A stretch of DNA of 41,400 nucleotides from Candidatus Eiseniibacteriota bacterium (lineage in GTDB: Bacteria; Arandabacterota; Arandabacteria; Arandabacterales; Arandabacteraceae): assembly GCA_043810925.1 (NCBI GenBank), contig JBDRNT010000068.1:1-41400 (forward strand), written 5' to 3'. The position numbers and the translations under genes were made by a program. Below the pieces are notes generated by a model that saw only the letters and a program-made list of their open reading frames with translations, was not told the DNA's origin and did no database searches. Below are positions 274 to 28,900 of the stretch, in pieces. Positions within the stretch are counted from its first letter, which is position 1; each line of letters opens with the position of its first letter.

Positions 274-339
274 GTTTCTAACACATTTTGACTAGATGTA
301 GTGGAATGTCCACAGGTACGCGTGCTGGGAGGGATTATC

Positions 340-1467
340 ATGACGAAGAAGGAACTTCTCTCCGCTGCAAAGCGAGATCTCCTCGCCAGGGCCCGAGATT
401 TGCGTATACGTGGCCGCACGAGCATGACCAAAGAGCAGCTGGCCGCCGCGATTGTGAAGGCCAGCAAGCAGGAGGGCGTAGGCGGCTCCTCCGAAACAAT
501 GCCGGGAGGGGGCCCGGGGCCGCAGAAGAGACGAGGGACCCCCATTAGAGAGCGGACTCTTGTCAGGCGAAGCTGGCGGGAGCAGCAGGCGTTGGTACAG
601 CATGCCAAGTATGAAGCGGAGTCGGGTAGAGCCGTAAAGGCGCCGCCCGAGCCCATGCCCGAACCGCATGAGCTGCCGCCGGCGTATGGCGGGGACCGAA
701 TTGTGCTCCTGGTTAGAGATCCGTACTGGCTTCATGTCTACTGGGAGATCTCAAGGGACACGCTGCTCAATGCAAAGAAGATACTTAGGGAAGAGTGGGA
801 GACGGCGCGGTCCGTACTCAGGGTCTATGATGTTACCGGAGTCGATTTCGATGGAAACAACGCCGAATCGTTTTTCGACATAGAGATCGACGGTGGTGCG
901 AATAACTGGTACGTCAATACGGGCGTGCCCAACCGGACCTACTGTATTGAGATAGGACTCCTCTCGAAGTCCGGGAAGTTCGTGATGCTGGCGAGGTCGA
1001 ACAAGGCCACCACCCCGAGAGACGCGCCATCGGATGTGTCCGACGAAGAGTGGATGATCCCCGACTGGCAGTTCGAACAGATCTATGCACTCTCGGGTGG
1101 TTTCAGCGTGGGCACGGGCTCTGCGGAACTCAAGGAGATGATGGAGAAAGCTCTTGGGCAGGCGTTGAGCTCAGGGGCGCCGAGCAGTTTCGCCGTATCG
1201 AGCCCGGGAATGGGGGCCGAGGCCGGAGTCCGGGCGCGCGGCTTCTGGTTCAGGCTGGGTACCGAGCTCATTGTCTACGGCGCCACAGAGCCGGATGCCA
1301 AGGTCACGCTCCAAGGAAGACCGATCAAGCTGAGACCCGACGGGACATTCACAGTTAGAATGGATCTACCCGATGGGGAGCAGGTTATCCCCGCCGTTGC
1401 AGTGTCGGCCGACGGCATCGACACTATCACCATAACGCCGACCGTGAGCAAGAAAACGAAGAAATAG
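340..1467 (+). CDS. DUF4912 domain protein with N-terminal Rho-N-like helix-extension-helix domain and C-terminal Ig-like domain
   Basis: ELPPAYGGDRIVLLVRDPYWLHVYWE, NNWYV, ARSN (DUF4912); N-terminal KRDLLARARDLRIRGRTSMTKEQL; C-terminal ELIVYGATEPDAKVT...PDGTF. ATG at 340 follows GGGAGGG. Confidence 0.85.
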   Translation: MTKKELLSAAKRDLLARARDLRIRGRTSMTKEQLAAAIVKASKQEGVGGSSETMPGGGPGPQKRRGTPIRERTLVRRSWREQQALVQHAKYEAESGRAVKAPPEPMPEPHELPPAYGGDRIVLLVRDPYWLHVYWEISRDTLLNAKKILREEWETARSVLRVYDVTGVDFDGNNAESFFDIEIDGGANNWYVNTGVPNRTYCIEIGLLSKSGKFVMLARSNKATTPRDAPSDVSDEEWMIPDWQFEQIYALSGGFSVGTGSAELKEMMEKALGQALSSGAPSSFAVSSPGMGAEAGVRARGFWFRLGTELIVYGATEPDAKVTLQGRPIKLRPDGTFTVRMDLPDGEQVIPAVAVSADGIDTITITPTVSKKTKK

Positions 1468-1470
1468 GTT

Positions 1471-3123
1471 TTGCCTTTGGGTACGCATAAAGACCAGGAG
1501 CCGCGAGGCCACCTCTCTATAGTTCTTCACGCGCATCTTCCGTTCGTGCGCCATCCGGAGTATGAGGAGTTTCTCGAAGAAGATTGGCTATTTGAAGCAA
1601 TAACAGAGACTTACATTCCTTTGCTCAGGGTCTTTGAGAAGTTGGACGCCGATTCGGTTCCCTTCAAGATAACGGTTTCCTTAAGTCCCACCGTGGTGGC
1701 CATGCTCAACGACTGGATGCTCCAGGAGCGCTACTTAAAACGCCTCAATAAACTGGTGGAACTTGCCTCGAAGGAAGTGGAGCGAACCCGCTGGGACTCT
1801 CGGCTGAACCGGCTGGCGCTTATGTATCACTGGCTTTTCGAGAACACGCGCCGGATCTACGCGGACGAATACTCACGGGACCTCGTGGGGGCTTTCCGCA
1901 GGGCGAGCGAGAGAGGAAACGTCGAGATCATAACCTGTTCGGCCACACATGGCTTCTTGCCGCTCATGTCCGTCAACAAGAACGCCGTCAGGGCCCAGAT
2001 AGAGACGGCCTGCAGATACCATCATAGGAACTTCGGTCAGCGGCCCCGCGGCATGTGGCTTCCTGAGTGTGCATACGAGCCGGGTATCGATGAGATGCTC
2101 AAGGCTTCGGGGATCAGGTTCTTTTTCACGGATACCCACGGGATACTCAATGCCGTACCGAGACCGAGATACGGTGTGTTTGCACCGATCTACTGTCCGT
2201 CCGGTGTGGCGGCCTTCGGACGCGACATGGAATCCTCAAGGCAGGTCTGGAGTGCTCAGGACGGGTACCCGGGTGATTTCACCTACCGGGATTTCTACCG
2301 CGACATAGGCTTTGATCTGGACCTCGATTACGTGCGGCCATATCTGCACGGTAATGTCACGCGAGTGCATACCGGTATCAAGTACTATCGCATAACAGGC
2401 AGGGGCGGCGAGAAGGAGCCCTACGATAGTGATGCGGCACTTGAAAAGGCAGCCGAGCATGCCGGGAACTTCGTCCACAACCGGGAACGCCAGATAGAGT
2501 ATCTCCAGGGTATTCTCGAAAGACCGCCAATGGTGATTGCGCCCTATGATGCAGAGCTCTTCGGTCACTGGTGGTTTGAGGGACCGCAGTGGCTCGAGTT
2601 TGTGATGAGGAAGGCGGCGTTCGACCAGAATACGTTCACGCTCACAACTCCTTCTGAGTACCTTTCACGCTATCCGGAGTGCCAGGTTGCCACACCATCG
2701 CAATCGAGCTGGGGTTGGAAGGGCTACAATGAGGTGTGGCTGGGTGGCTCCAACGACTGGATCTACAGGCATCTTCACTGGGCGGCGGACAGGATGGTGG
2801 AGCTTGCCAATGAGGATGACGGTGGAAACGCTCTCAAGGCAAGGGCCTTGACCCAGGCCGCCCGGGAGTTGTTGCTTGCCCAGGGTAGTGACTGGGCCTT
2901 CATCATGAAGACCGGGACCGCGGTTGACTATGCCGTAAAGCGGACCAAGGAGCACATCCTCAGGTTCCGGAGACTCTACAACGATATCAAGCGGGGTTCT
3001 ATTGACATAGAGTGGTTGAGTAATGTAGAAAATAAGGACAATCTGTTTCCCGAATTGGACTATCGAATCTACTCAGACCGGTTCTCCGTGGCCGGAAATA
3101 CCACAGCTGATACGAGGAGGTAA
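1471..3123 (+). CDS. GH57 family 1,4-alpha-glucan branching enzyme (DUF1957 C-terminal domain)
   Basis: LHAHLPFV, WLFEAITETYIPL, ATHGFLP, GMWLPECAY, PYDAELFGHWWFEG, ARELLLAQGSDWAF. Confidence 0.93.
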   Translation: MPLGTHKDQEPRGHLSIVLHAHLPFVRHPEYEEFLEEDWLFEAITETYIPLLRVFEKLDADSVPFKITVSLSPTVVAMLNDWMLQERYLKRLNKLVELASKEVERTRWDSRLNRLALMYHWLFENTRRIYADEYSRDLVGAFRRASERGNVEIITCSATHGFLPLMSVNKNAVRAQIETACRYHHRNFGQRPRGMWLPECAYEPGIDEMLKASGIRFFFTDTHGILNAVPRPRYGVFAPIYCPSGVAAFGRDMESSRQVWSAQDGYPGDFTYRDFYRDIGFDLDLDYVRPYLHGNVTRVHTGIKYYRITGRGGEKEPYDSDAALEKAAEHAGNFVHNRERQIEYLQGILERPPMVIAPYDAELFGHWWFEGPQWLEFVMRKAAFDQNTFTLTTPSEYLSRYPECQVATPSQSSWGWKGYNEVWLGGSNDWIYRHLHWAADRMVELANEDDGGNALKARALTQAARELLLAQGSDWAFIMKTGTAVDYAVKRTKEHILRFRRLYNDIKRGSIDIEWLSNVENKDNLFPELDYRIYSDRFSVAGNTTADTRR

Positions 3124-7709: not shown

Positions 7710-8216
7710 ATGCTTGAGACAAATCGCTTAAGACTTCGAAAAATGACCGCCGGTGATGTCGACGCCATCATGGTGATCTTCTCAGATCCGGAAGTGATGA
7801 GGTCTTTCGGTGGGGACCTGTTCGACCGGAGTCAGACCGAGAAATGGGTCGACCGCAATCTGGGCCACCAGAGGCAGTATGGCTATGGGCTCTTCTCTGT
7901 GATTCTCAAATCGGATCAGACTCTGGTTGGTGATTGCGGGTTGGAACATATGGAAGTGGACGGTCGGGCCGAGGTGGAGATTGGCTACGACTTCCGGAGC
8001 GACTACTGGGGACAGGGCCTGGCGACGGAGGCCGCGTCCGCCGTTCGTGATTTCGCTCTTATAGAGCTGGGCCTGCCGCGCGTCATCAGTCTGATAAGGC
8101 CCGACAATATAGCGTCACGCCGCGTCGCCGAGAAGATCGGCATGGTGAAGGAGAGAGACATACTGCGCGGGGGGCAGACCTACTGGATCTATTCGCTGTC
8201 GTCCGCCAAGTCCTAA
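7710..8216 (+). CDS. GNAT N-acetyltransferase, RimJ/RimL type
   Basis: LETNRLRLR, EVEIGY, YWGQGLATEAA, NIASRRVAEKIGM. Confidence 0.92.
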   Translation: MLETNRLRLRKMTAGDVDAIMVIFSDPEVMRSFGGDLFDRSQTEKWVDRNLGHQRQYGYGLFSVILKSDQTLVGDCGLEHMEVDGRAEVEIGYDFRSDYWGQGLATEAASAVRDFALIELGLPRVISLIRPDNIASRRVAEKIGMVKERDILRGGQTYWIYSLSSAKS

Positions 8217-8561: not shown

Positions 8562-9062
8562 ATGGAGGATGTGAGCAAAGTAACCAGCGAATTCTCAGAG
8601 TCTGTCACGGTCGTCACCGTGAAAAAGGGTGACAAAGTCAATGCCATGACTGCCGCCTGGGCGATTCCCGTTTCCCACCGACCGGCCTTGGTTGTCGTGC
8701 ACATAGCCCCACAGAGATACACCCATGACATGATAATGGAAGCCAAGGAATTCGGTTTGAGTGTACTTGCTGAGGATCAGATGGCAATCTCGCAGCATGC
8801 CGGTATCACATCCGGCAGGAAGATCGACAAGTTCGAGAATGGGATAATGAAGCAGAAGCCGTCCAAGGTGATAGCTTCCCCCGTGCTCGAAGGCTGCGCC
8901 GCCACCATGGAATGCAAACTCGAGAAAGCGATAGCGATGGGCGATCATACTATATTCGTTGGACGGGTCGTGGCTATGGAGCGAGATCTCAGCAAGAAGC
9001 CGCTCACTCTGCATCGAGGTACCTATTACGGACTCGGTGAGTCCGTGGGGAAGTACTACTGA
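8562..9062 (+). CDS. Flavin reductase family protein (RutF/DIM6/NTAB-like)
   Basis: NAMTAAW, RYTHDMI, SGRKIDKF, MECKL, GDHTIFVGRV. Confidence 0.92.
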   Translation: MEDVSKVTSEFSESVTVVTVKKGDKVNAMTAAWAIPVSHRPALVVVHIAPQRYTHDMIMEAKEFGLSVLAEDQMAISQHAGITSGRKIDKFENGIMKQKPSKVIASPVLEGCAATMECKLEKAIAMGDHTIFVGRVVAMERDLSKKPLTLHRGTYYGLGESVGKYY

Positions 9063-9135
9063 GTCTCAGCTCTTGACAGTCCGGCCGTGAAGGCCCATCA
9101 CTCAGGTTCTGGTTCTTATTGCTACGGGGAGGCTT

Positions 9136-10227
9136 TTGACAGTGAGAACGATTGCCATTGCGAATCAGAAGGGCGGGTGCGGCAAGACAACGACTGCGAT
9201 AAACCTGTCTGCGTGCCTGTCGCTCAAGGGTAGGACGGTACTCCTGATCGATCTCGATCCGCAGGCGCATGCTACTACCGGTGTCGGTATTGATGTCGAG
9301 GATGTAGAACACAGTGTCTATGATGCACTCTTAGGCGACTGTGGTTTCAGCGACATCACGCGGATGGTCCGGACCGGATTCGATGTCGCGCCGGCAACGG
9401 TGATGCTGAGCGTCTTCGAGCAGAAGCTCGCGGGTGAGCCGGGCAGGGAAAACAAGCTGCGGGAAGTTCTTCTGGGCATGGAGCAGGCTTATGACTACGT
9501 AATAGTGGATTGTCCGCCGAGCATAGGGCTTCTCACCTTCAATGCGCTCAGGGCATGCAACGAGACGATAATCCCGATTGAGAGCAGTTTCTTCTCTTTG
9601 TGGGGAGTAGGCAGGCTCCTCGATATGATCGAGATGATAAGAGAGGAGCTCTCCCACGAGGTCAGGATCAAGGCGCTCTGTACGATCCATGACGGCAGGG
9701 CGCGGTTCTCCGCGGAGATCGTGGAGGATGTGAGGAAGCATTTCAAGGACCGGACCTTCGAGACGGTCGTTCGTGTCAATGTGAAGTTGAGGGAGGCGGC
9801 AAGCTTCGGCCTCCCGATCACTGAATACGACAGGCGTTCGAGGGGATACAGGGAGTACCTCTCGGTTGCGCGGGAGGTCATTGCGGATGAGGATCAGGTC
9901 AGGGTGGAAGAAGCTGTTCAGGTTTCCCTTCCGGCGCCGGAAAAGGAGTCCTATGGACCGAGATCGGTTCCGGGCGGTGTGCTCTTCAAGATCGATGCAC
10001 CGAAAGCCAGCCGAGTCGGCGTTTCCGGGGACTTCAATTCCTGGGAGGATCCGATCCTGCTTAACGATGACGATGAAGACGGTATCTGGATCGCAATAGC
10101 GCGGGTGGATCCCGGGACCTACCAGTACAAGTTCGTTGTGGACGGCGAGTGGATAACGGACCCGTCCAACCCTGTGGGTATCGATGATACTCACGGCGGC
10201 CGTAACTCGATTATGGTGGTGAAATAG
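9136..10227 (+). CDS. ParA/Soj family ATPase fused to C-terminal AMPK-beta-like CBM48 glycogen-binding domain
   Basis: NQKGGCGKTT, IDLDPQAHAT, VDCPPSIG, NVKLREAAS; C-terminal GDFNSW...DGIW...PGTYQYKFVVDGEWITDPSNP...GGRNS. Confidence 0.9.
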   Translation: MTVRTIAIANQKGGCGKTTTAINLSACLSLKGRTVLLIDLDPQAHATTGVGIDVEDVEHSVYDALLGDCGFSDITRMVRTGFDVAPATVMLSVFEQKLAGEPGRENKLREVLLGMEQAYDYVIVDCPPSIGLLTFNALRACNETIIPIESSFFSLWGVGRLLDMIEMIREELSHEVRIKALCTIHDGRARFSAEIVEDVRKHFKDRTFETVVRVNVKLREAASFGLPITEYDRRSRGYREYLSVAREVIADEDQVRVEEAVQVSLPAPEKESYGPRSVPGGVLFKIDAPKASRVGVSGDFNSWEDPILLNDDDEDGIWIAIARVDPGTYQYKFVVDGEWITDPSNPVGIDDTHGGRNSIMVVK

Positions 10228-10228
10228 A

Positions 10229-11185
10229 GTGACCGACGCTAACACGGAGGAAGCGAGGCCCGATCGCAGGGCGAAGACCACCAGACACAGCCGCAAGCTC
10301 GGCCGGGGACTCTCGCAGGTCTCCCACGTGTTCTTGTCGGGTGCCACACGCGAGAAGACTGGGACGACGGCAGGCATCGATGATGCTGCGGACATCAGAT
10401 TCTGGTTGCCGGATGCCAGGCTGATAAGTATCACGTCGGGTGCGGGTGTGTGCGGGAAGAGCATGGTGGCCGCCAATATTGGTTTCGGGCTCTATGAGAG
10501 AGGGCGTAAGGTCGCGTTTGTGGATGCGGATTCCGACAGCCCGGGTATCATGGTGATCACAGGTAGCGTGCTGGCCGAAGCCGGGCACCGGTTGATGAAA
10601 ACCAATGAGGCATTCGGAAACATTGTCATGGTCGGGACTGGTGCCAGGGCGGAAGCTTCGGCCGAAGAAGGATCGGGCTCGACGGCTGCCGCCGGCCATA
10701 TTGAAGAGGCCGCAAGGCAGGCGCGTACCGTGCTGGTAGATACATCGCCGCGGGCGGAATCGAGTTTGACCGTCTGGCAGCTTGCGCGTCTCATACTGGT
10801 CATCACGGAACCGGCCACAGAGAGCATGCAAGCCTCGTACGCGACCATAAAGCGTATCCGCTCAGCTTCGAGGCGCGCAAGGATTGGGGTGATCGTTAAC
10901 AAGGCCAAGGACCACGATGAGGCGGAACAGTGTTTCCGCAAGATATCCAATGTGTCGAGACGTTTCTTGAAGATTAATATCAGAAACTGTGGTTTCATTG
11001 TCCATAGCGATGATGTGAGAGAGGCTTGTGAGCGAGCGGTACCTCTGAGCCGGGCGTTTCCCGGTTCGAGGGCTGCCAGGTGTATGAATTCGATCCTGGC
11101 ACTTATAGTGATGGATGAGTCTGCAATTGCCAGGAGGAGGAGGGAGGTGACAGTAGAAGCGTGCGCATCGAGAGGAGGACAATAG
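10229..11185 (+). CDS. Degenerate MinD/FlhG-like P-loop protein with N-terminal ParB-like LGRGL peptide
   Basis: ITSGAGVCGKS, VAFVDAD, LVDTSP, VITEP..SMQASYATIK, IGVIVNKA, VSRRFL; N-terminal RKLGRGLSQVSHVFLS. Confidence 0.8.
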   Translation: MTDANTEEARPDRRAKTTRHSRKLGRGLSQVSHVFLSGATREKTGTTAGIDDAADIRFWLPDARLISITSGAGVCGKSMVAANIGFGLYERGRKVAFVDADSDSPGIMVITGSVLAEAGHRLMKTNEAFGNIVMVGTGARAEASAEEGSGSTAAAGHIEEAARQARTVLVDTSPRAESSLTVWQLARLILVITEPATESMQASYATIKRIRSASRRARIGVIVNKAKDHDEAEQCFRKISNVSRRFLKINIRNCGFIVHSDDVREACERAVPLSRAFPGSRAARCMNSILALIVMDESAIARRRREVTVEACASRGGQ

Positions 11186-11961
11186 ACAGCGCTAGTGAGC
11201 TTACCACGCTGGTCACGGAGGTCCTCGAGGGAGAAATCAAGGGGTTTCACCTGATTGATCGTGTAGACTTTCCCGGTGACGAGGTTGAAATCGGCCTGCT
11301 TGCAAGTGATGCAGACGGCCGGTTGCTGATCGTCGGTGCAAGGGAACGTTCGGGTGACAGCCTCATCCTCAGCTATGGAAAGCACGTGTCATGGCTCAAG
11401 AGCAGAAAAGATGCATTAGCTAAGAAACATCCCGGGTTGGACTGGACGGGTGAGCCCGGGATTGTGCTTTTATCAGAGAGCTTCAGTCCGCATGTATTGA
11501 CTCTGATCTCAATGCTCGGGACTGAACCGAGGATGTGTTATGGCATCAAATGCCTTGGCATAGGTTCCGAGAAGGGGCTCTATCTGGAGTCGATCCTGCT
11601 TCCCCGGTTCGAACAGGTGAAACAGCCTGTTCCCAGGGAGACCGATCTGCTCTCGAGAGCGGTTTCAAGTGTAGTCGGTGTTGCGGATGACTTGTCCGTC
11701 TCCGCGTCATTCGGCTACGTCAGCGAATCGCTTGATTGGGTGCCGGTTGCCAATGTCAGGAAACGCAGCGGCACCGTCTGGGTGGAATCAGGACCCGGGA
11801 AATGGACGACCAAGAGAGTAGAGGACGAAGAGTCTCTGGTGGATGCGCTTGGCAAGGTCAAGGCGAGCTACGACGAAGTCCTCAGGACGAAGGGCGAAGC
11901 GAAGAACATGAGCGATTCCGAGTTGTCGGATGCCGAGCGCAAGAGTCTGAAGTGGGAATAG
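11161..11961 (+). CDS. Hypothetical protein, NucS/EndoMS-like PD-(D/E)XK fold with apparently lost catalytic residues
   Basis: EIGLLASDADGRLLIVGAR matches the IDxLAxDxxGxLVIxExK pattern except at the catalytic positions; PGIVLLSESFS follows; overlaps the upstream gene by 25 nt. Confidence 0.6.
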   Translation: MRIERRTIDSASELTTLVTEVLEGEIKGFHLIDRVDFPGDEVEIGLLASDADGRLLIVGARERSGDSLILSYGKHVSWLKSRKDALAKKHPGLDWTGEPGIVLLSESFSPHVLTLISMLGTEPRMCYGIKCLGIGSEKGLYLESILLPRFEQVKQPVPRETDLLSRAVSSVVGVADDLSVSASFGYVSESLDWVPVANVRKRSGTVWVESGPGKWTTKRVEDEESLVDALGKVKASYDEVLRTKGEAKNMSDSELSDAERKSLKWE

Positions 11962-11975
11962 CTCTGTGATCAAGG

Positions 11976-12818
11976 ATGCCTGATAAGCCGAGAAGGCTGC
12001 GGCCGATTGACGGGATAGTAATATTCGCGGTATCCCAGGTCGTCGCGGTCGTTGCGACGGTTGTGCTGGCCCTCCGGATATCGATAAGGGCTAACACGGG
12101 TATCTCAGCAGTGGTGGTGCTGTGTGTAGCGGCAGCGCTGCTGAGATACACCGGCCGCAGCCCGTTTCGGTGTGTCAAGTTGGATCGCTTTCGACCGGGT
12201 CTGGTCCTCTATTCCATCCTGGCCAGCCTGGCACTGATCGTACCCACGTTGAGTCTACAGACCATCATTGCCCGCTACCTCACGATCCCGGATGCGGTGA
12301 TAGAAGCCCTGGAGGCGATAGTGCGGGCCGAGAGCCTTCCGGAGCTCATGTACGTATGGCTTATAGCCGCGCTCGGGGCCGCCGTAAGCGAGGAGTTCAT
12401 ATTCCGGGGAGTGCTTCAGAACGGTTTCTCGTCCAGGCTGCGCGGCTGGATCGCAGTTCTGATAACTGCATCCGTCTTCGCGATTCTGCACACCATCTGG
12501 CGGTTTCCGCCGGCCTTCATTCTGGGGGTCTTTCTTGGTGTTCTCTACTGGAGAACAGGTTCGCTCTGGCCGCCGATTGCCGCGCATCTTACGATCAACA
12601 CCGTTACGATCGTTACGCTCTACGTTGCGGAGGTGTTTGGTGATACGGCTGTGCCTCAGTGGCTCGTTGAGGAGCGGCCCGCCCCGATCTGGATGATTGT
12701 GCTCTCCATGATCGCGTTTGCGGGTCTTATCCGGTTGATATGGACTAGGTCGGCTGCCGAGCAGGAAGAAACGCAATCCGACGGACCGGACGAAACTGTC
12801 ACGGTTGATACCCCATGA
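11976..12818 (+). CDS. CPBP (CAAX protease/Abi) family intramembrane metalloprotease
   Basis: EEFIFRG, FAILH, AHLTIN motifs; multiple TM segments. Confidence 0.9.
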   Translation: MPDKPRRLRPIDGIVIFAVSQVVAVVATVVLALRISIRANTGISAVVVLCVAAALLRYTGRSPFRCVKLDRFRPGLVLYSILASLALIVPTLSLQTIIARYLTIPDAVIEALEAIVRAESLPELMYVWLIAALGAAVSEEFIFRGVLQNGFSSRLRGWIAVLITASVFAILHTIWRFPPAFILGVFLGVLYWRTGSLWPPIAAHLTINTVTIVTLYVAEVFGDTAVPQWLVEERPAPIWMIVLSMIAFAGLIRLIWTRSAAEQEETQSDGPDETVTVDTP

Positions 12819-13882
12819 CCTCAAGAGAGCGAATACGCACCGTACTTGCGGGTGGGATTCCCGATCGTGTCCCTATTCACGACGGTTACTGGGATGAGGC
12901 CCTGGCGCGGTGGCAGGATGAAGGGCTCCCGGCCGAGGCGGCGCGCGACCGGGATTCCGTGGGTGACTTCTTCGGCTGGGAAATAAGGATGATCTCGGTA
13001 GATGCCTCGTTCCTTATCGAGGAGCGAATCCTCGATGAGGACGATAGGTATGTCACCAAGGTGACCAAGAACGGAACAGTGCTTAAGCACATAAAGGGTA
13101 AGACATCCACGCCCGGGCTCATCTCATTTCCCGTCAACGGCATGAAGGAGTGGGAGGAACAGAAATGGCGTCTGACCTCGATCGAAGGCCGGCTTCCTGA
13201 AGATCTCGAGCGGAGCTACAGGAGCTACCGCGACGGCGATCGGTTCGTGGTCGTTGTCGTACATGATCCCATCGAGGCATCATGGTCGAAACTCGGTCCG
13301 ACCTACATGATGGAAGCAATGAAACTCGAACCCAAACTGATCCACGATGTCTTCACGACGATTACGGAGCTCAACATAGCGGTATGCGAAGACCTGTTTG
13401 CGAGGGGCTATGAAGTCGACGGAGCATGGATATGGGGTGATATTGCCTACTCCAGGGGAACGTTCTTCTCACCGCAGATGTACCGCGAGATGCTCTATCC
13501 CTATCACAGACGTCTGATCGGTTTCTTCAGGGATCGGAACCTGCCGGTCGTCTATCACAGCGACGGAGACTTCCGCCGGGTGATACCACTGTTGATTGAG
13601 GCGGGTGTGAAGTGTCTGCAGCCGTTGGAGTCGAAGGCAAACATGGATCTCTTCGAGCTCAAGCGCGAGTACGGCGGTCAACTGGCGTTTATGGGCAACG
13701 TCGATTTCGAGAAGATCGCCAGGGGCAAGGACGAGGCGGAGGAGGAGATACGGCTGAAGGTCGGCCGGGGCAAGGAAGGCGGAGGTTACATCTATCACTC
13801 CGACCACTCCGTACCCCCGACGGTAAGCCTCGAAGAGTATAGATGGGTGCTCGACCGGGTGAGGCACCACGGGCGCTACTGA
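12815..13882 (+). CDS. Uroporphyrinogen decarboxylase family (UroD/MtaA-like) TIM-barrel protein
   Basis: MTSRERI...PDRVP, GDIAY...FSP.MYRE, YHSDG, GGGYIYHSDHSVP; ATGA overlap with the CPBP gene. Confidence 0.88.
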   Translation: MTSRERIRTVLAGGIPDRVPIHDGYWDEALARWQDEGLPAEAARDRDSVGDFFGWEIRMISVDASFLIEERILDEDDRYVTKVTKNGTVLKHIKGKTSTPGLISFPVNGMKEWEEQKWRLTSIEGRLPEDLERSYRSYRDGDRFVVVVVHDPIEASWSKLGPTYMMEAMKLEPKLIHDVFTTITELNIAVCEDLFARGYEVDGAWIWGDIAYSRGTFFSPQMYREMLYPYHRRLIGFFRDRNLPVVYHSDGDFRRVIPLLIEAGVKCLQPLESKANMDLFELKREYGGQLAFMGNVDFEKIARGKDEAEEEIRLKVGRGKEGGGYIYHSDHSVPPTVSLEEYRWVLDRVRHHGRY

Positions 13883-25561: not shown

Positions 25562-28500
25562 ATGTTTAACAAAATCCTCACCAAGGTATTTGGCACGAAG
25601 TCAGGTCGTGATCTTAAGAAGTCTGTACCTGTTCTGGAGCAGACGAATGACTTCTACCTGAGTTACCATACGCTCTCGGACCACGCCCTTCGCCGTAAAA
25701 CCGAGGAGCTCAGACAGGCCCTCTCCGATGGCGCGCCGGTCGATGACGTTTTTCCCGAGGCCGCAGCTACCGTCAAGGAACTGTCGAGAAGACTTGTGGG
25801 CAAGACATGGCCGGTCTGCGATATAGATACGCACTGGAACATGGTTCCCTTCGATGTGCAGCTCCAGGGTGCGATGGTGCTTCACGAAGGCAAGATCGCC
25901 GAGATGGCTACGGGTGAGGGTAAGACTCTTGCTGCAACCATACCTCTTTACCTCAACGGAGTGACAGGCAAGGGCGCACATCTTGTCACCGTGAACGACT
26001 ATCTTGCCAGGAGGGATTCCGAGTGGATGGGCAAGATCTACGAACACCTGGGTCTTGTCGTCGGTTGTATACAACATGACATAGAGCCGCAACAGAGGAA
26101 GACTGCCTACCGGGCCGATGTGACCTATGGCACCAACAATGAGTTCGGTTTCGACTACCTGAGGGACAACATGGCGACCAGTCTCGAGGGAAGGGTGCAG
26201 CGTGGTCATCACTACGCCATCGTCGATGAGGTCGACAGCATCCTCATAGATGAGGCCAGGACGCCGCTGATCATCTCCGGGCCCGTGTCGGTGTCGAGAC
26301 ACAAGTTTGAAAGCCTCAAGCCCGCCGTCGAGAAACTGGCAAAAGAACAGATCAGATTGGTCAACGACATGCTGGCCGATGCTGAGAAGATGCTGGATAC
26401 CGATGATGAGTACACTGCGGGTATCAACATGCTCGCCGCCCGGAGAGGTGCTCCCAAGCACAGGAAGCTCTTCAAACTGATGCAGGACGGGAATCTTCGC
26501 CGTCTGGTCGACCGGGTCGAGCGTGATTACATGAGGGAGAAGCGGCTCCACGACATAGACGAGCAACTCTATTTTGCCATAGATGAGCGAGGCCACAGTG
26601 TCGACCTTTCCGAGAAGGGCAGGCTCTATCTCGAGAAGGGTTCGAAGCCGGGGCGTTCGACGGGATCACGTTCAAGCGATCGTCCCGATATCCGGCTCAT
26701 TGCCGGAGACGGCGGGCTGGACTTCTCTCCTAAGACCAAGCAGATCCTCGCTGAAGAGCAGACCCTGGACTATCTCGCGGAGAAGACATACCCGCTGGTG
26801 GTGGCGGCGGATTCAGGTCACGATTCGCTTTTCCTGCTGCCGGACTCCGCGCTTGCCTTCCAGCGGATAGACTCCGATGCGGGCGGACTTCTTAGATCGG
26901 TGCTGCTTGAGGAGGCGCGCCCCCAAGGCCCAGACAAGGTTGAAGACGGCCGGATGGAGACCTTCCTTGAGAACTGGATCGAGCTCAACTCCGGATTTCT
27001 CTCGCTCGTCCAGGTCAGACTGAGACAGCGATTCGAGGACGATTACGGTGAGCGGAGCGGACGACTCCACAACATATCACAGCTCCTCAAGGCCTACTCG
27101 CTTTTTGATAAGGACGTCGATTACGTGGTCAAGGAAGACAAGGTGCTCATCGTGGACCAGTTTACGGGGCGTCTCATGCCTGGCCGGCGTTACAGCGACG
27201 GTCTCCACCAGGCCCTCGAGGCCAAGGAGGGTGTTACCGTCGAACGGGAGACCCAGACGCTGGCGACGATCACCATCCAGAACTACTTCAGGCTCTATGA
27301 GAAGCTGGCCGGTATGACCGGAACGGCCGAAACCGAGGCGGGTGAGTTCTATGAGATCTACAAACTCGATGTTGTGGTGGTCCCGACGAACGAGCCTGTC
27401 CGCAGGGCCGATTACGAGGACGTGATCTATCTTACGAGGCGTGAGAAGTATGCCGCGATCATCGATGAGATAGTAAGGATGCATGAGATGGGAAGACCCG
27501 TGCTCGTGGGTACCGTCAACGTCGAGGTTTCAGAGGTACTGAGCCGGCTACTCAAGCGCAAGAAGATAGAGCACTCGGTGTTGAATGCCAAGTATCACGA
27601 AGAAGAAGCGCGAATAGTGGCCAAGGCCGGAGAGCGGGGGGCCGTAACCATTGCGACCAACATGGCGGGTCGTGGAACCGATATAAAGCTCGGTGACGGT
27701 GTGGTCGCATGTGAGATGTGCTGTTACAAGTGTACGGATCGTGATTGTGCGGCGTGTGCCAAGGAGAAGGATACGAGTGACGAGTGTCTCAAGGACATGC
27801 CGTGCGGGCTTCACATAATGGGTACCGAGAGACATGAGAGCAGACGAATAGACAGGCAGCTCAGAGGGAGAAGCGGCAGGCAGGGCGATCCAGGTTCCTC
27901 AAGGTTCTACCTCTCGCTTGAAGATGACCTGATGCGGCTCTTCGGAAGTGACCGTCTCTCCGGTGTGATATCGAAGCTCGGCATCCAGGAGGGCGAGGCA
28001 ATCGAACACTCGCTCATAACAAGACAGATCGGGCGGGCCCAGAAGCGTGTGGAGGCCAATAACTTCGGCATAAGAAAGCATCTTCTCGAATACGATGACG
28101 TGATGAACAAGCAGAGAGAAGTCGTTTATGACAAGAGACTGCTTTCGCTCGAGAGCGAAGATATCGGCAACGAGATCTCCAGCGTGATCGAGTCCGTCAT
28201 CGACCGGAAGCTCGAAACCCATATTCCCGGCGGCAGTCATCCTGAAGACTGGGACATGGATGGTTTCAAGCGGGAGCTTGAAACGATGTTTCTCTGGCCC
28301 TTCGACCTGGGCGGTACCGCAGAGCCGGGAGCGCGCGTAGAAAACCTCGCCGACAGGGTGAAGAACACAGCCCATCTTGCTTACGAGTCCAGACAGAGAG
28401 AGATCGGCTATGAGACGATCAAAGAGATAGAGCGTAATGTGCTTCTCTATGTGATCGACAGGCGGTGGCGCGATCATCTCTACGATCTGGACGGGGTCAA

Positions 28501-28900
28501 GTCCGGTATAGGGTTGAGAGCATACGGGCAGAAGGATCCGCTCTTAGAGTATAAGGCCGAAGCGTTTGAGCTCTTCTTAAAGATGCTTGACAGCATCGAT
28601 GAGGAGACGGTATCGCTCGTCTTCCACGGCAGGTGGGTGAAGCCCGATGAGGAAGAGGCGAGACAGGCTGCTCGCTACAGAGCCGTCAAACCCGAGATGG
28701 CAACGCTTGGCCCGGGACCGCAGGCGGATCCGGCGGCGCAACCTGGTCCCGGATCCGGGGTGACTTCAGCCCGGGGCGGGCAGATGTCAGGACGGCCTGT
28801 GAGCCGCAGGAAACCAGTCGTCGCGGCGCCCAGAGTGGGCAGGAATGACCCCTGCCCGTGCGGCAGTGGAAAGAAACACAAGAAATGCTGTGGACGCTGA
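25562..28900 (+). CDS. secA: Preprotein translocase ATPase SecA (with inserts and C-terminal SEC-C motif)
   Basis: EMATGEGKT, VTVNDYLA, DEVDSILIDEARTPLIISG, IATNMAGRGTDI, RIDRQLRGRSGRQGDPG, GRNDPCPCGSGKKHKKCCG. Confidence 0.98.
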   Translation: MFNKILTKVFGTKSGRDLKKSVPVLEQTNDFYLSYHTLSDHALRRKTEELRQALSDGAPVDDVFPEAAATVKELSRRLVGKTWPVCDIDTHWNMVPFDVQLQGAMVLHEGKIAEMATGEGKTLAATIPLYLNGVTGKGAHLVTVNDYLARRDSEWMGKIYEHLGLVVGCIQHDIEPQQRKTAYRADVTYGTNNEFGFDYLRDNMATSLEGRVQRGHHYAIVDEVDSILIDEARTPLIISGPVSVSRHKFESLKPAVEKLAKEQIRLVNDMLADAEKMLDTDDEYTAGINMLAARRGAPKHRKLFKLMQDGNLRRLVDRVERDYMREKRLHDIDEQLYFAIDERGHSVDLSEKGRLYLEKGSKPGRSTGSRSSDRPDIRLIAGDGGLDFSPKTKQILAEEQTLDYLAEKTYPLVVAADSGHDSLFLLPDSALAFQRIDSDAGGLLRSVLLEEARPQGPDKVEDGRMETFLENWIELNSGFLSLVQVRLRQRFEDDYGERSGRLHNISQLLKAYSLFDKDVDYVVKEDKVLIVDQFTGRLMPGRRYSDGLHQALEAKEGVTVERETQTLATITIQNYFRLYEKLAGMTGTAETEAGEFYEIYKLDVVVVPTNEPVRRADYEDVIYLTRREKYAAIIDEIVRMHEMGRPVLVGTVNVEVSEVLSRLLKRKKIEHSVLNAKYHEEEARIVAKAGERGAVTIATNMAGRGTDIKLGDGVVACEMCCYKCTDRDCAACAKEKDTSDECLKDMPCGLHIMGTERHESRRIDRQLRGRSGRQGDPGSSRFYLSLEDDLMRLFGSDRLSGVISKLGIQEGEAIEHSLITRQIGRAQKRVEANNFGIRKHLLEYDDVMNKQREVVYDKRLLSLESEDIGNEISSVIESVIDRKLETHIPGGSHPEDWDMDGFKRELETMFLWPFDLGGTAEPGARVENLADRVKNTAHLAYESRQREIGYETIKEIERNVLLYVIDRRWRDHLYDLDGVKSGIGLRAYGQKDPLLEYKAEAFELFLKMLDSIDEETVSLVFHGRWVKPDEEEARQAARYRAVKPEMATLGPGPQADPAAQPGPGSGVTSARGGQMSGRPVSRRKPVVAAPRVGRNDPCPCGSGKKHKKCCGR

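Follow-up and report, generated by a model that had tools for sequence, protein, structure and literature searches.

Bacterial glycogen is usually regarded as passively placed, and the literature we searched described no ATPase or positioning machinery for it, whereas positioning systems are known for PHA granules (PhaM/PhaF) and for carboxysomes (McdAB). ParA/MinD ATPases are defined by a Walker A motif of deviant type, KGGxxK[S/T], with a signature lysine, and their partners generally contact the ATPase through a basic, disordered N-terminus, according to the available parts of PMC11407121 (for both statements) and of bioRxiv 2022.06.09.495121 and PMC9178275 (for the second). In ParABS and McdAB, it is the activator that holds the cargo. 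PhaM (Cupriavidus necator) and PhaF (Pseudomonas putida) are built differently, as histone-like DNA-binding PHA-granule tethers with no ATPase as described and no CBM, in which a single polypeptide connects the carbon-storage granule with the nucleoid and promotes inheritance (PMC9049629, in the part available). CipG, a different kind of protein, ties carboxysomes to GlgC (PMC13506006, likewise in part).

We analysed a window of 41,400 nucleotides (contig JBDRNT010000068.1, Candidatus Eiseniibacteriota bacterium) that encodes a Soj/ParA-type ATPase fused to an AMPK1_CBM/CBM48 domain, directly followed by a gene for a tagged partner. As judged from sequence, this is a further form of ParA/MinD positioning system, one that has a CBM48 built in. 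It resembles McdA/McdB and other cargo-positioning ParA/MinD systems (PMC11407121, available part) in pairing an orphan ParA-like ATPase with a coupled partner that has a basic disordered N-terminus, and the nucleoid is the likely matrix here too. It differs from McdAB and ParABS in that the ATPase itself bears the predicted cargo-binding domain; McdA is 22% identical to the fusion ATPase, and there are no microcompartment genes near the fusion, with shell and Rubisco families absent from the 30 window ORFs and from the scanned neighbours in other phyla. As in PhaM and PhaF, one polypeptide is predicted to bridge granule and nucleoid. Literature searches on ParA with glycogen or CBM48 gave no description of the fusion, with the proviso that subscription papers and supplements might mention the family. 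In the parts of the texts available, the 2024 ParA/MinD cargo review (PMC11407121) contains neither 'glycogen' nor 'granule', the Frontiers ParA review (PMC9178275) does not contain 'glycogen', and the Chemical Reviews article on prokaryotic alpha-glucans (PMC11046441) contains neither 'ParA' nor 'nucleoid'.

Reading frame, domains and conserved residues of the fusion

The fusion gene and its parts are as follows.

9126..9132, + strand: GGGGAGG, ribosome-binding-site-like, 9 nt 5' of GTG 9142 (from sequence)
9142..10227, + strand: ParA-CBM48 fusion gene, 361 aa from GTG 9142
9142..9891, + strand: Soj/ParA-type ATPase domain, residues 1-250 (Pfam AAA_31, PDB 8ray, Foldseek, residue map)
9169..9192, + strand: deviant Walker A; further ATPase landmarks are D37/D39, D123, R186 (9697-9699) and K215 (9784-9786)
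9892..9975, + strand: linker, residues 251-278, low-confidence at 260-271 in the AlphaFold2 model
9976..10224, + strand: AMPK1_CBM/CBM48 domain, residues 279-361, with W301, K330, W337 and N355

The gene is a single open frame on the + strand (9136/9142-10227), and its start is likely GTG 9142, since GGGGAGG lies at 9126-9132 and close homologues are 361 aa long. Counts of promoters and terminators came close to those of shuffled sequence (6 vs 3.2 and 7 vs 4.5, respectively). The protein opens directly with the ATPase, without a signal peptide, while by eye other CBM48 proteins of this genome have hydrophobic leaders.

A Pfam scan matched the ATPase part to AAA_31 (E 2e-52) and CbiA (E 9.6e-20), and placed the tail above the cut-offs of both CBM profiles: AMPK1_CBM (PF16561; E 8.4e-14, 52 bits against a cut-off of 26.8) and CBM_48 (PF02922; E 9.2e-6, 26.3 bits against 22.4). 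The assignment of the C-terminal ~83 aa to the AMPK-beta/CBM48 family, made in a preliminary description of this DNA, is thereby upheld; positions 9976-10227 correspond to residues 279-361 (83 aa) and the stop codon. The AlphaFold2 model (mean pLDDT 85, pTM 0.69) comprises two domains, and Foldseek ranks Soj/ParA first for the ATPase (9a6n, 8ray and 2bek; TMt 0.92-0.94; ~1.7 Å rmsd). Its closest solved relatives are ParA 8ray (5e-59) and Soj 1wcv, and identity to chromosomal ParA/Soj structures (8ray, 1wcv/2bek, 6iub/8jmj) is 40-44%. The CBM aligns with AMPK beta-2 (E 2.6e-10) and beta-1 (structures 4y0g, 2f15 and 1z0m), and the Trp, Lys and Trp of the sugar site are in register. W301, K330 and W337 of the fusion align with AMPK beta residues that we take to be W100, K126 and W133. 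Mutating those three residues abolishes or reduces glycogen binding by AMPK beta (PMC6274970, in the part available). The shared domain is silent on shared regulation: the fusion is bacterial, joined to ParA and outside a kinase complex. The AMPK parallel drawn earlier thus holds for the CBM48 and stops there, a kinase or AMPK-like complex being absent here.

The ATPase shares with chromosomal ParA/Soj its deviant Walker A (KGGCGKTT, residues 10-17, including the signature lysine), its catalytic Asp and its basic pair. A residue map places K10, K15, D39, R186 and K215 on K11, K16, D40, R189 and R218 of the 253-aa Bacillus Soj (L055), and the available part of PMC3778016 names Soj R189 and R218 for non-specific DNA binding. 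The preliminary description was therefore right that basic residues occupy the Soj DNA-binding positions, and every motif it quoted is present: KGGCGKTT, HDGRARF (R186), RVNVKLRE (K215), GDFNSW (W301) and YKFVVDGEW (K330, W337). Its 'terminal N' exists, but at N355, six residues short of the last residue.

Conservation was counted over 223 other fusions, each denominator being the number with a residue at that position. K10, K15, D37 and D39 are present in 217/217, R186 in 221/223, and W301 and K/R330 each in 222/222. A lysine or arginine occupies position 215 in 187/222, with the other 35 having no basic residue there; W337 is kept in 210/221 and N/D355 in 209/221. Ten of the 11 exceptions at W337 form one paralogue lineage of the window's own phylum, in which all 10 copies have lost W337 and N355 and carry Thr at 215, none of the 10 has a tagged gene downstream, and none of the five examined has an alpha-glucan neighbour. 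Read from these sequences, the sugar site, one putative DNA-binding residue and the partner are missing together in this lineage, and this is one evolutionary event. The second fusion copy of this genome (C169:285-1355; L003, L115; 356 aa) belongs to this partnerless lineage. The linker in fusion relatives has a median length of 24 aa and a maximum of 183 aa.

Distribution and phylogenetic placement

Both PF13614 and PF16561 are found in 119 of the 120 homologues among the matches listed (45-89% identity), the exception being a 201-aa fragment, and seven or more phylum-level groups have fusions. We searched whole genomes with a 32-sequence profile, using outside the window's own phylum a strict cut-off of E 1e-92, so that the genome counts are lower bounds. 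The fusion is common in its hosts, being unbroken in 16/18 genomes of its own phylum and present in 24/25 genomes of another phylum and in 82/121 of Omnitrophota. The wider clade reaches 83/121 Omnitrophota genomes, as 81 fusions, one stop-split copy and one plain ParA. Its other members are in Nitrospirota (8/101 genomes, 7 with the CBM), a deltaproteobacterial phylum (10/151; 7 with the CBM, one of these cut by a contig end) and Planctomycetota (5/151, 4 with the CBM), and one further genome outside those groups also has the fusion. In 151 Myxococcota genomes the fusion was absent at E 1e-92, the sole match being CBM-less; the top ESM Atlas cluster, with 13 members, names Myxococcota as its commonest taxon. 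ESM Atlas clusters at 0.98 carry AAA_31 and AMPK1_CBM on 99-100% of their members, by automatic names only. Some homologues bear a Desulfobacterales label. An assembly chimera, or a chance fusion confined to this genome, has a negligible probability: the both-domain homologues, the own-phylum genomes and the fusions in other phyla rule it out, and this settles the doubt about a chimera absent from relatives that had been raised earlier.

A search of genome contigs for related loci returned mostly ordinary ParA, with both domains matched in 3 of 80 loci. We placed 125 ATPase domains in a quick IQ-TREE tree (midpoint root; five truncated or split rows omitted; Omnitrophota, the 25-genome phylum and ordinary ParAs thinned). 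All 72 CBM fusions lie within one 81-row branch (SH-aLRT 97), in which nine CBM-less proteins also nest; the ParB-linked ParAs of the window's own phylum sit in a different branch. The fusion further differs from chromosomal ParA/Soj in its C-terminal CBM48 and in having no adjoining ParB; by Pfam, the next gene is not ParB. A separate parA-parB pair lies on contig C91, beside genes that look by eye like rsmG, mnmG and mnmE. Given this separate parAB and its own tree branch, the fusion is not the chromosome-partition ATPase. The earlier label of a chromosome-partition-type ATPase fits the Soj/ParA fold and the Walker A, but not the placement in an orphan clade of a genome with its own parAB. 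As judged from sequence, the fusions constitute a genuine orphan subfamily of ParA, conserved and to all appearances undescribed, with a CBM48 domain and a tagged partner.

In one Omnitrophota copy (L160; G094:C2:37478-38569), a stop splits the ATPase from the CBM. The seven CBM-less paralogues L207-L213, whose acidic tails measure 70-85 aa, group together in a single branch within the fusion clade, and 4/7 of their genomes additionally carry a CBM fusion. L185 (G029:C37) is a plain ParA outside the fusion branch; behind it lie a 469-aa gene, basic at its N-terminus, and pilus-like genes.

The tagged partner, the third gene and their neighbourhood

Two conserved genes follow the fusion, and three of the genes 5' of it give context.

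301..1467, + strand: DUF4912 gene, coupled to the GH57 gene (context)
1471..3123, + strand: GH57 branching-enzyme-type gene (GH57 + BE_C), 6.0 kb 5' of the fusion (context)
8562..9062, + strand: flavin-reductase-like gene, directly 5' of the fusion in 10/10 own-phylum loci shown (context)
10229..11185, + strand: partner gene, 318 aa, starting 1 nt past the fusion stop; disordered N-terminus, then a FlhG/FleN/MinD-like fold
10289..10342, + strand: partner N-terminal tag, 18 residues, SRKLGRGLSQVSHVFLSG; ParB-like first half, family-specific second half
11161..11961, + strand: third conserved gene, 266 aa, whose first 25 nt lie within the partner gene; conserved C-terminal motif

In its model, residues 1-53 of the partner are disordered (pLDDT <50), and the top fold matches of the body are FlhG (4rz3/4rz2) and FleN. 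Many partner homologues carry the JGI label FlhG. Unlike FlhG, FleN and MinD, the partner has an added N-terminal tag and a P-loop (SGAGVCGKS) that is without the signature lysine in 25/25 aligned homologues, and FliG (FliG_C) was not found in this 91.7%-complete genome; on these two grounds, the missing lysine and the unfound FliG, we rejected the FlhG label for the partner. No cargo-binding domain was recognised in a Pfam scan of the partner.

Across the 25 aligned homologues, the block RKLGRGLSxVSHVFLSG is near-invariant between very variable flanks. ParB N-termini resemble the start of the tag and differ from its second half: 43 ParB-like N-termini match the first half only, averaging -5.2 bits on a tag profile whose 34 source partners all belong to phyla other than the window's own. 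On this profile, the window's partner ranks 1st of 3207 genome ORFs with 33.1 bits, the runner-up scoring 15.0. No second convincing carrier was found among the 3207, so the tag profile gives no pointer to a cargo. With a loose pattern applied just downstream of the fusion (matches far from a gene start or in unrelated genes being discounted by eye), the tag was present at 14/14 main loci of the own phylum, 24/24 of the 25-genome phylum, 6/7 of Nitrospirota, 6/7 of the deltaproteobacterial phylum, 3/4 of Planctomycetota and 14/44 Omnitrophota fusion loci; the same pattern found it in 0/5 ParB-linked loci. By analogy with ParA/MinD partners, the tag is likely to be the peptide that contacts the ParA-type ATPase. 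When a complex was predicted from the dimeric ATPase, ATP, Mg and residues 15-50 of the partner, the scores, without controls, were 0.26 and 0.12 against a mark of 0.32 and weigh neither way. At least two CBM-less members of the clade (L198, L208) have a tagged partner, so the ATPase-partner pair can exist without the CBM. One partner carries a weak HTH behind its tag.

In some Omnitrophota, the gene 5' of the fusion looks, by eye, tag-like at its N-terminus and also has a patch rich in lysine and a hydrophobic stretch (L189:6227-6781, L264:1928-2485, L270:7287-7994 and L281:7398-7973), a sequence pattern which suggests a membrane-anchored partner. Several of the fusions beside these genes are without a basic residue at 215.

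The third gene directly follows the partner in several phyla. It had no Pfam match at E 0.05 and no PDB match beyond E 0.04; Atlas clusters with PF01939 on 43% and 13% of their members provide a lead to a putative NucS-like fold. The order that recurs in relatives is DUF4912, GH57, activase, GalT-like, flavin reductase, fusion, partner and third gene, with the GalT-like gene at most 0.8 kb away in 9/12 loci. Where those 9/12 relatives have it, the window has a GNAT acetyltransferase (7710-8216), and the nearest relative, L121, has other genes at this spot, which is therefore variable; the closest GalT-like gene of this genome adjoins glgA. URO-D-family genes lie 3' of the module in the window (12815-13882) and in deltaproteobacterial loci (L253:1341-2618, L254:6139-7350), possibly by chance. 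In Nitrospirota, a MerR-type HTH gene lies directly 5' of the ATPase, whether the CBM is present or absent (L082:7415-7897, L246:7369-7839, L247:2689-3207, L249:2909-3454). Further along the window, 25562-28900 encodes a long SecA of 1112 aa, whose SecA_DEAD match takes up 590 residues although the profile has 290 positions, which points to a large insertion.

Alpha-glucan neighbours and explanations for the system

The genome encodes GlgA, the GH57 branching-type enzyme and a GlgC-like protein that, at 403.7 bits, falls just short of its cut-off of 424.9. Using nine alpha-glucan queries, most of them taken from fusion loci, we found an alpha-glucan gene within 8 kb in 35/106 fusion loci, some of which had a 5 kb flank only. 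These comprised 5/12 loci of the own phylum, 16/59 of Omnitrophota, 12/16 of the 25-genome phylum and 2/7 of the deltaproteobacterial phylum, with 0/7 in Nitrospirota, 0/4 in Planctomycetota and 0/1 elsewhere. The controls gave 0/75 for other ParA loci (mostly chromosomal ParA of other phyla, taken from the 80-locus contig search) and 0/9 for those clade members that have no CBM; of places picked at random in this genome, 3.0% have such a gene. The other 71/106 fusion loci have no alpha-glucan gene within 8 kb, and many contigs end early. Twelve of the 35 linked loci come from one phylum, beside a GH13 whose orthologue in this genome looks secreted, and seven have GlgC 3-5 kb away on the opposite strand; with these two sets, and kin being non-independent, the independent links number about five. 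The neighbour varies by lineage (GH57 branching type, another GH57, GlgC, a synthase-phosphorylase fusion, GlgB). The clearest links are those of L250, where a 1441-aa fusion of GT3 glycogen synthase and alpha-glucan phosphorylase (L250:9067-13389) lies 295 nt 5' of the ParA-CBM48 gene, of L251, where GlgB is directly behind the partner, and of eight Omnitrophota loci with a GH57 two genes 5' of the fusion. Among Omnitrophota, GlgA is present in 41/41 fusion-positive genomes (41 of the 82 positives tested) against 29/39 negative ones (P 0.0004). In size-matched genomes of 1.3-1.9 Mb the figures are 19/19 and 20/24 (P 0.12, not significant), and we rejected this co-occurrence as support because its significance is gone after genome-size matching. 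Glycogen is likely to be the target of the fusion system.

In the reading we favour, whose chances we put at about even, the fusion would be an ATP-switched tether between nucleoid and glycogen, released by the tagged partner. With ATP bound, the ATPase would dimerise and bind DNA non-specifically through R186 and K215, coating the nucleoid, as extrapolated from ParA/MinD biochemistry (PMC11407121, available part). Two CBM48 domains on flexible linkers would give this dimer avidity for branched alpha-glucan. The basic N-terminal tag of the partner would stimulate hydrolysis, on which the dimer would fall apart and drop the DNA, and monomerisation would cost the avidity and let the glycogen go. 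The outcome would be glycogen spread out and passed to both daughter cells. The preliminary description had proposed a bridge between nucleoid and glycogen; the predicted domains, the family-wide residues, the wide spread and the alpha-glucan neighbours are consistent with it, while the orphan clade, the tagged partner and the third gene were no part of that proposal. Cargo held by the ATPase misfits the standard diffusion ratchet unless the partner is localised. A broader version of the tether, which we rate slightly below an even chance, would be an inverted, ATP-driven system for glycogen positioning and inheritance across many mostly uncultured phyla, in which the ATPase grips the cargo and a ParB-like tag on interchangeable partners sets its release; as part of it, the carriers of the tag would be a dead FlhG-like protein here and a membrane protein in some Omnitrophota. 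If glycogen is positioned in this way, a polysaccharide joins the ParA/MinD cargo list, with the ATPase and not the activator holding the cargo.

The same parts could instead report on carbon reserves, an alternative we consider possible but rather unlikely: glycogen would sequester the ATPase through CBM48, and low reserves would free it to regulate, jointly with the FlhG/FleN-like partner, replication, division or transcription, which would link carbon reserves to a ParA switch. The fold of the partner suits this, FleN being an antiactivator according to PDB titles, as do the MerR-type regulators directly 5' in Nitrospirota, the weak HTH after one tag, the retention of the partner by CBM-less members, and the glycogen inhibition that the AMPK beta CBM mediates (PMC6274970, available part). 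A conserved regulatory target was not found among these loci, however, MerR is absent from the window's lineage, and a long variable linker (up to 183 aa) suits a tether over allosteric coupling, though sequestration is still compatible with it. Alternatively, glycogen may serve as matrix or landmark, with the ATPase using granules to place glycogen enzymes, a complex of the partner and third gene, or a membrane anchor. Tags on unrelated carriers (FlhG-like here; the Omnitrophota protein with a hydrophobic stretch, by eye), the Omnitrophota fusions beside it that have no basic residue at 215, and glycogen enzymes as recurring neighbours would fit such a use of granules, but the glycogen enzymes of this genome are absent from the top 20 tag-profile matches and R186 in nearly all fusions favours DNA as the matrix; we hold this to be distinctly unlikely. 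The CBM48 could also be a passenger, or bind another glycan or a protein, in a system unrelated to glycogen. The nesting of CBM-less members in the clade, the paralogue lineage that keeps the fold without W337 and N355, the majority of loci that have no glycogen neighbour, and the fact that conserved aromatics can be structural all lean that way, against which stand three AMPK-site residues that are near-invariant outside the paralogue lineage and alpha-glucan links that recur with different enzymes, so that we regard it as very improbable.

Two further observations concern glycogen enzymes. The L250 phosphorylase had no tblastn match at E 1e-8 in this 91.7%-complete genome, despite its GlgA and GlgC-like genes. 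In four fusion-negative Omnitrophota genomes, GT5 glycogen-synthase domains lie in frames of ~1030 aa (G079:C95, G097:C46, G034:C14 and G109:C27), which suggests another fused form.
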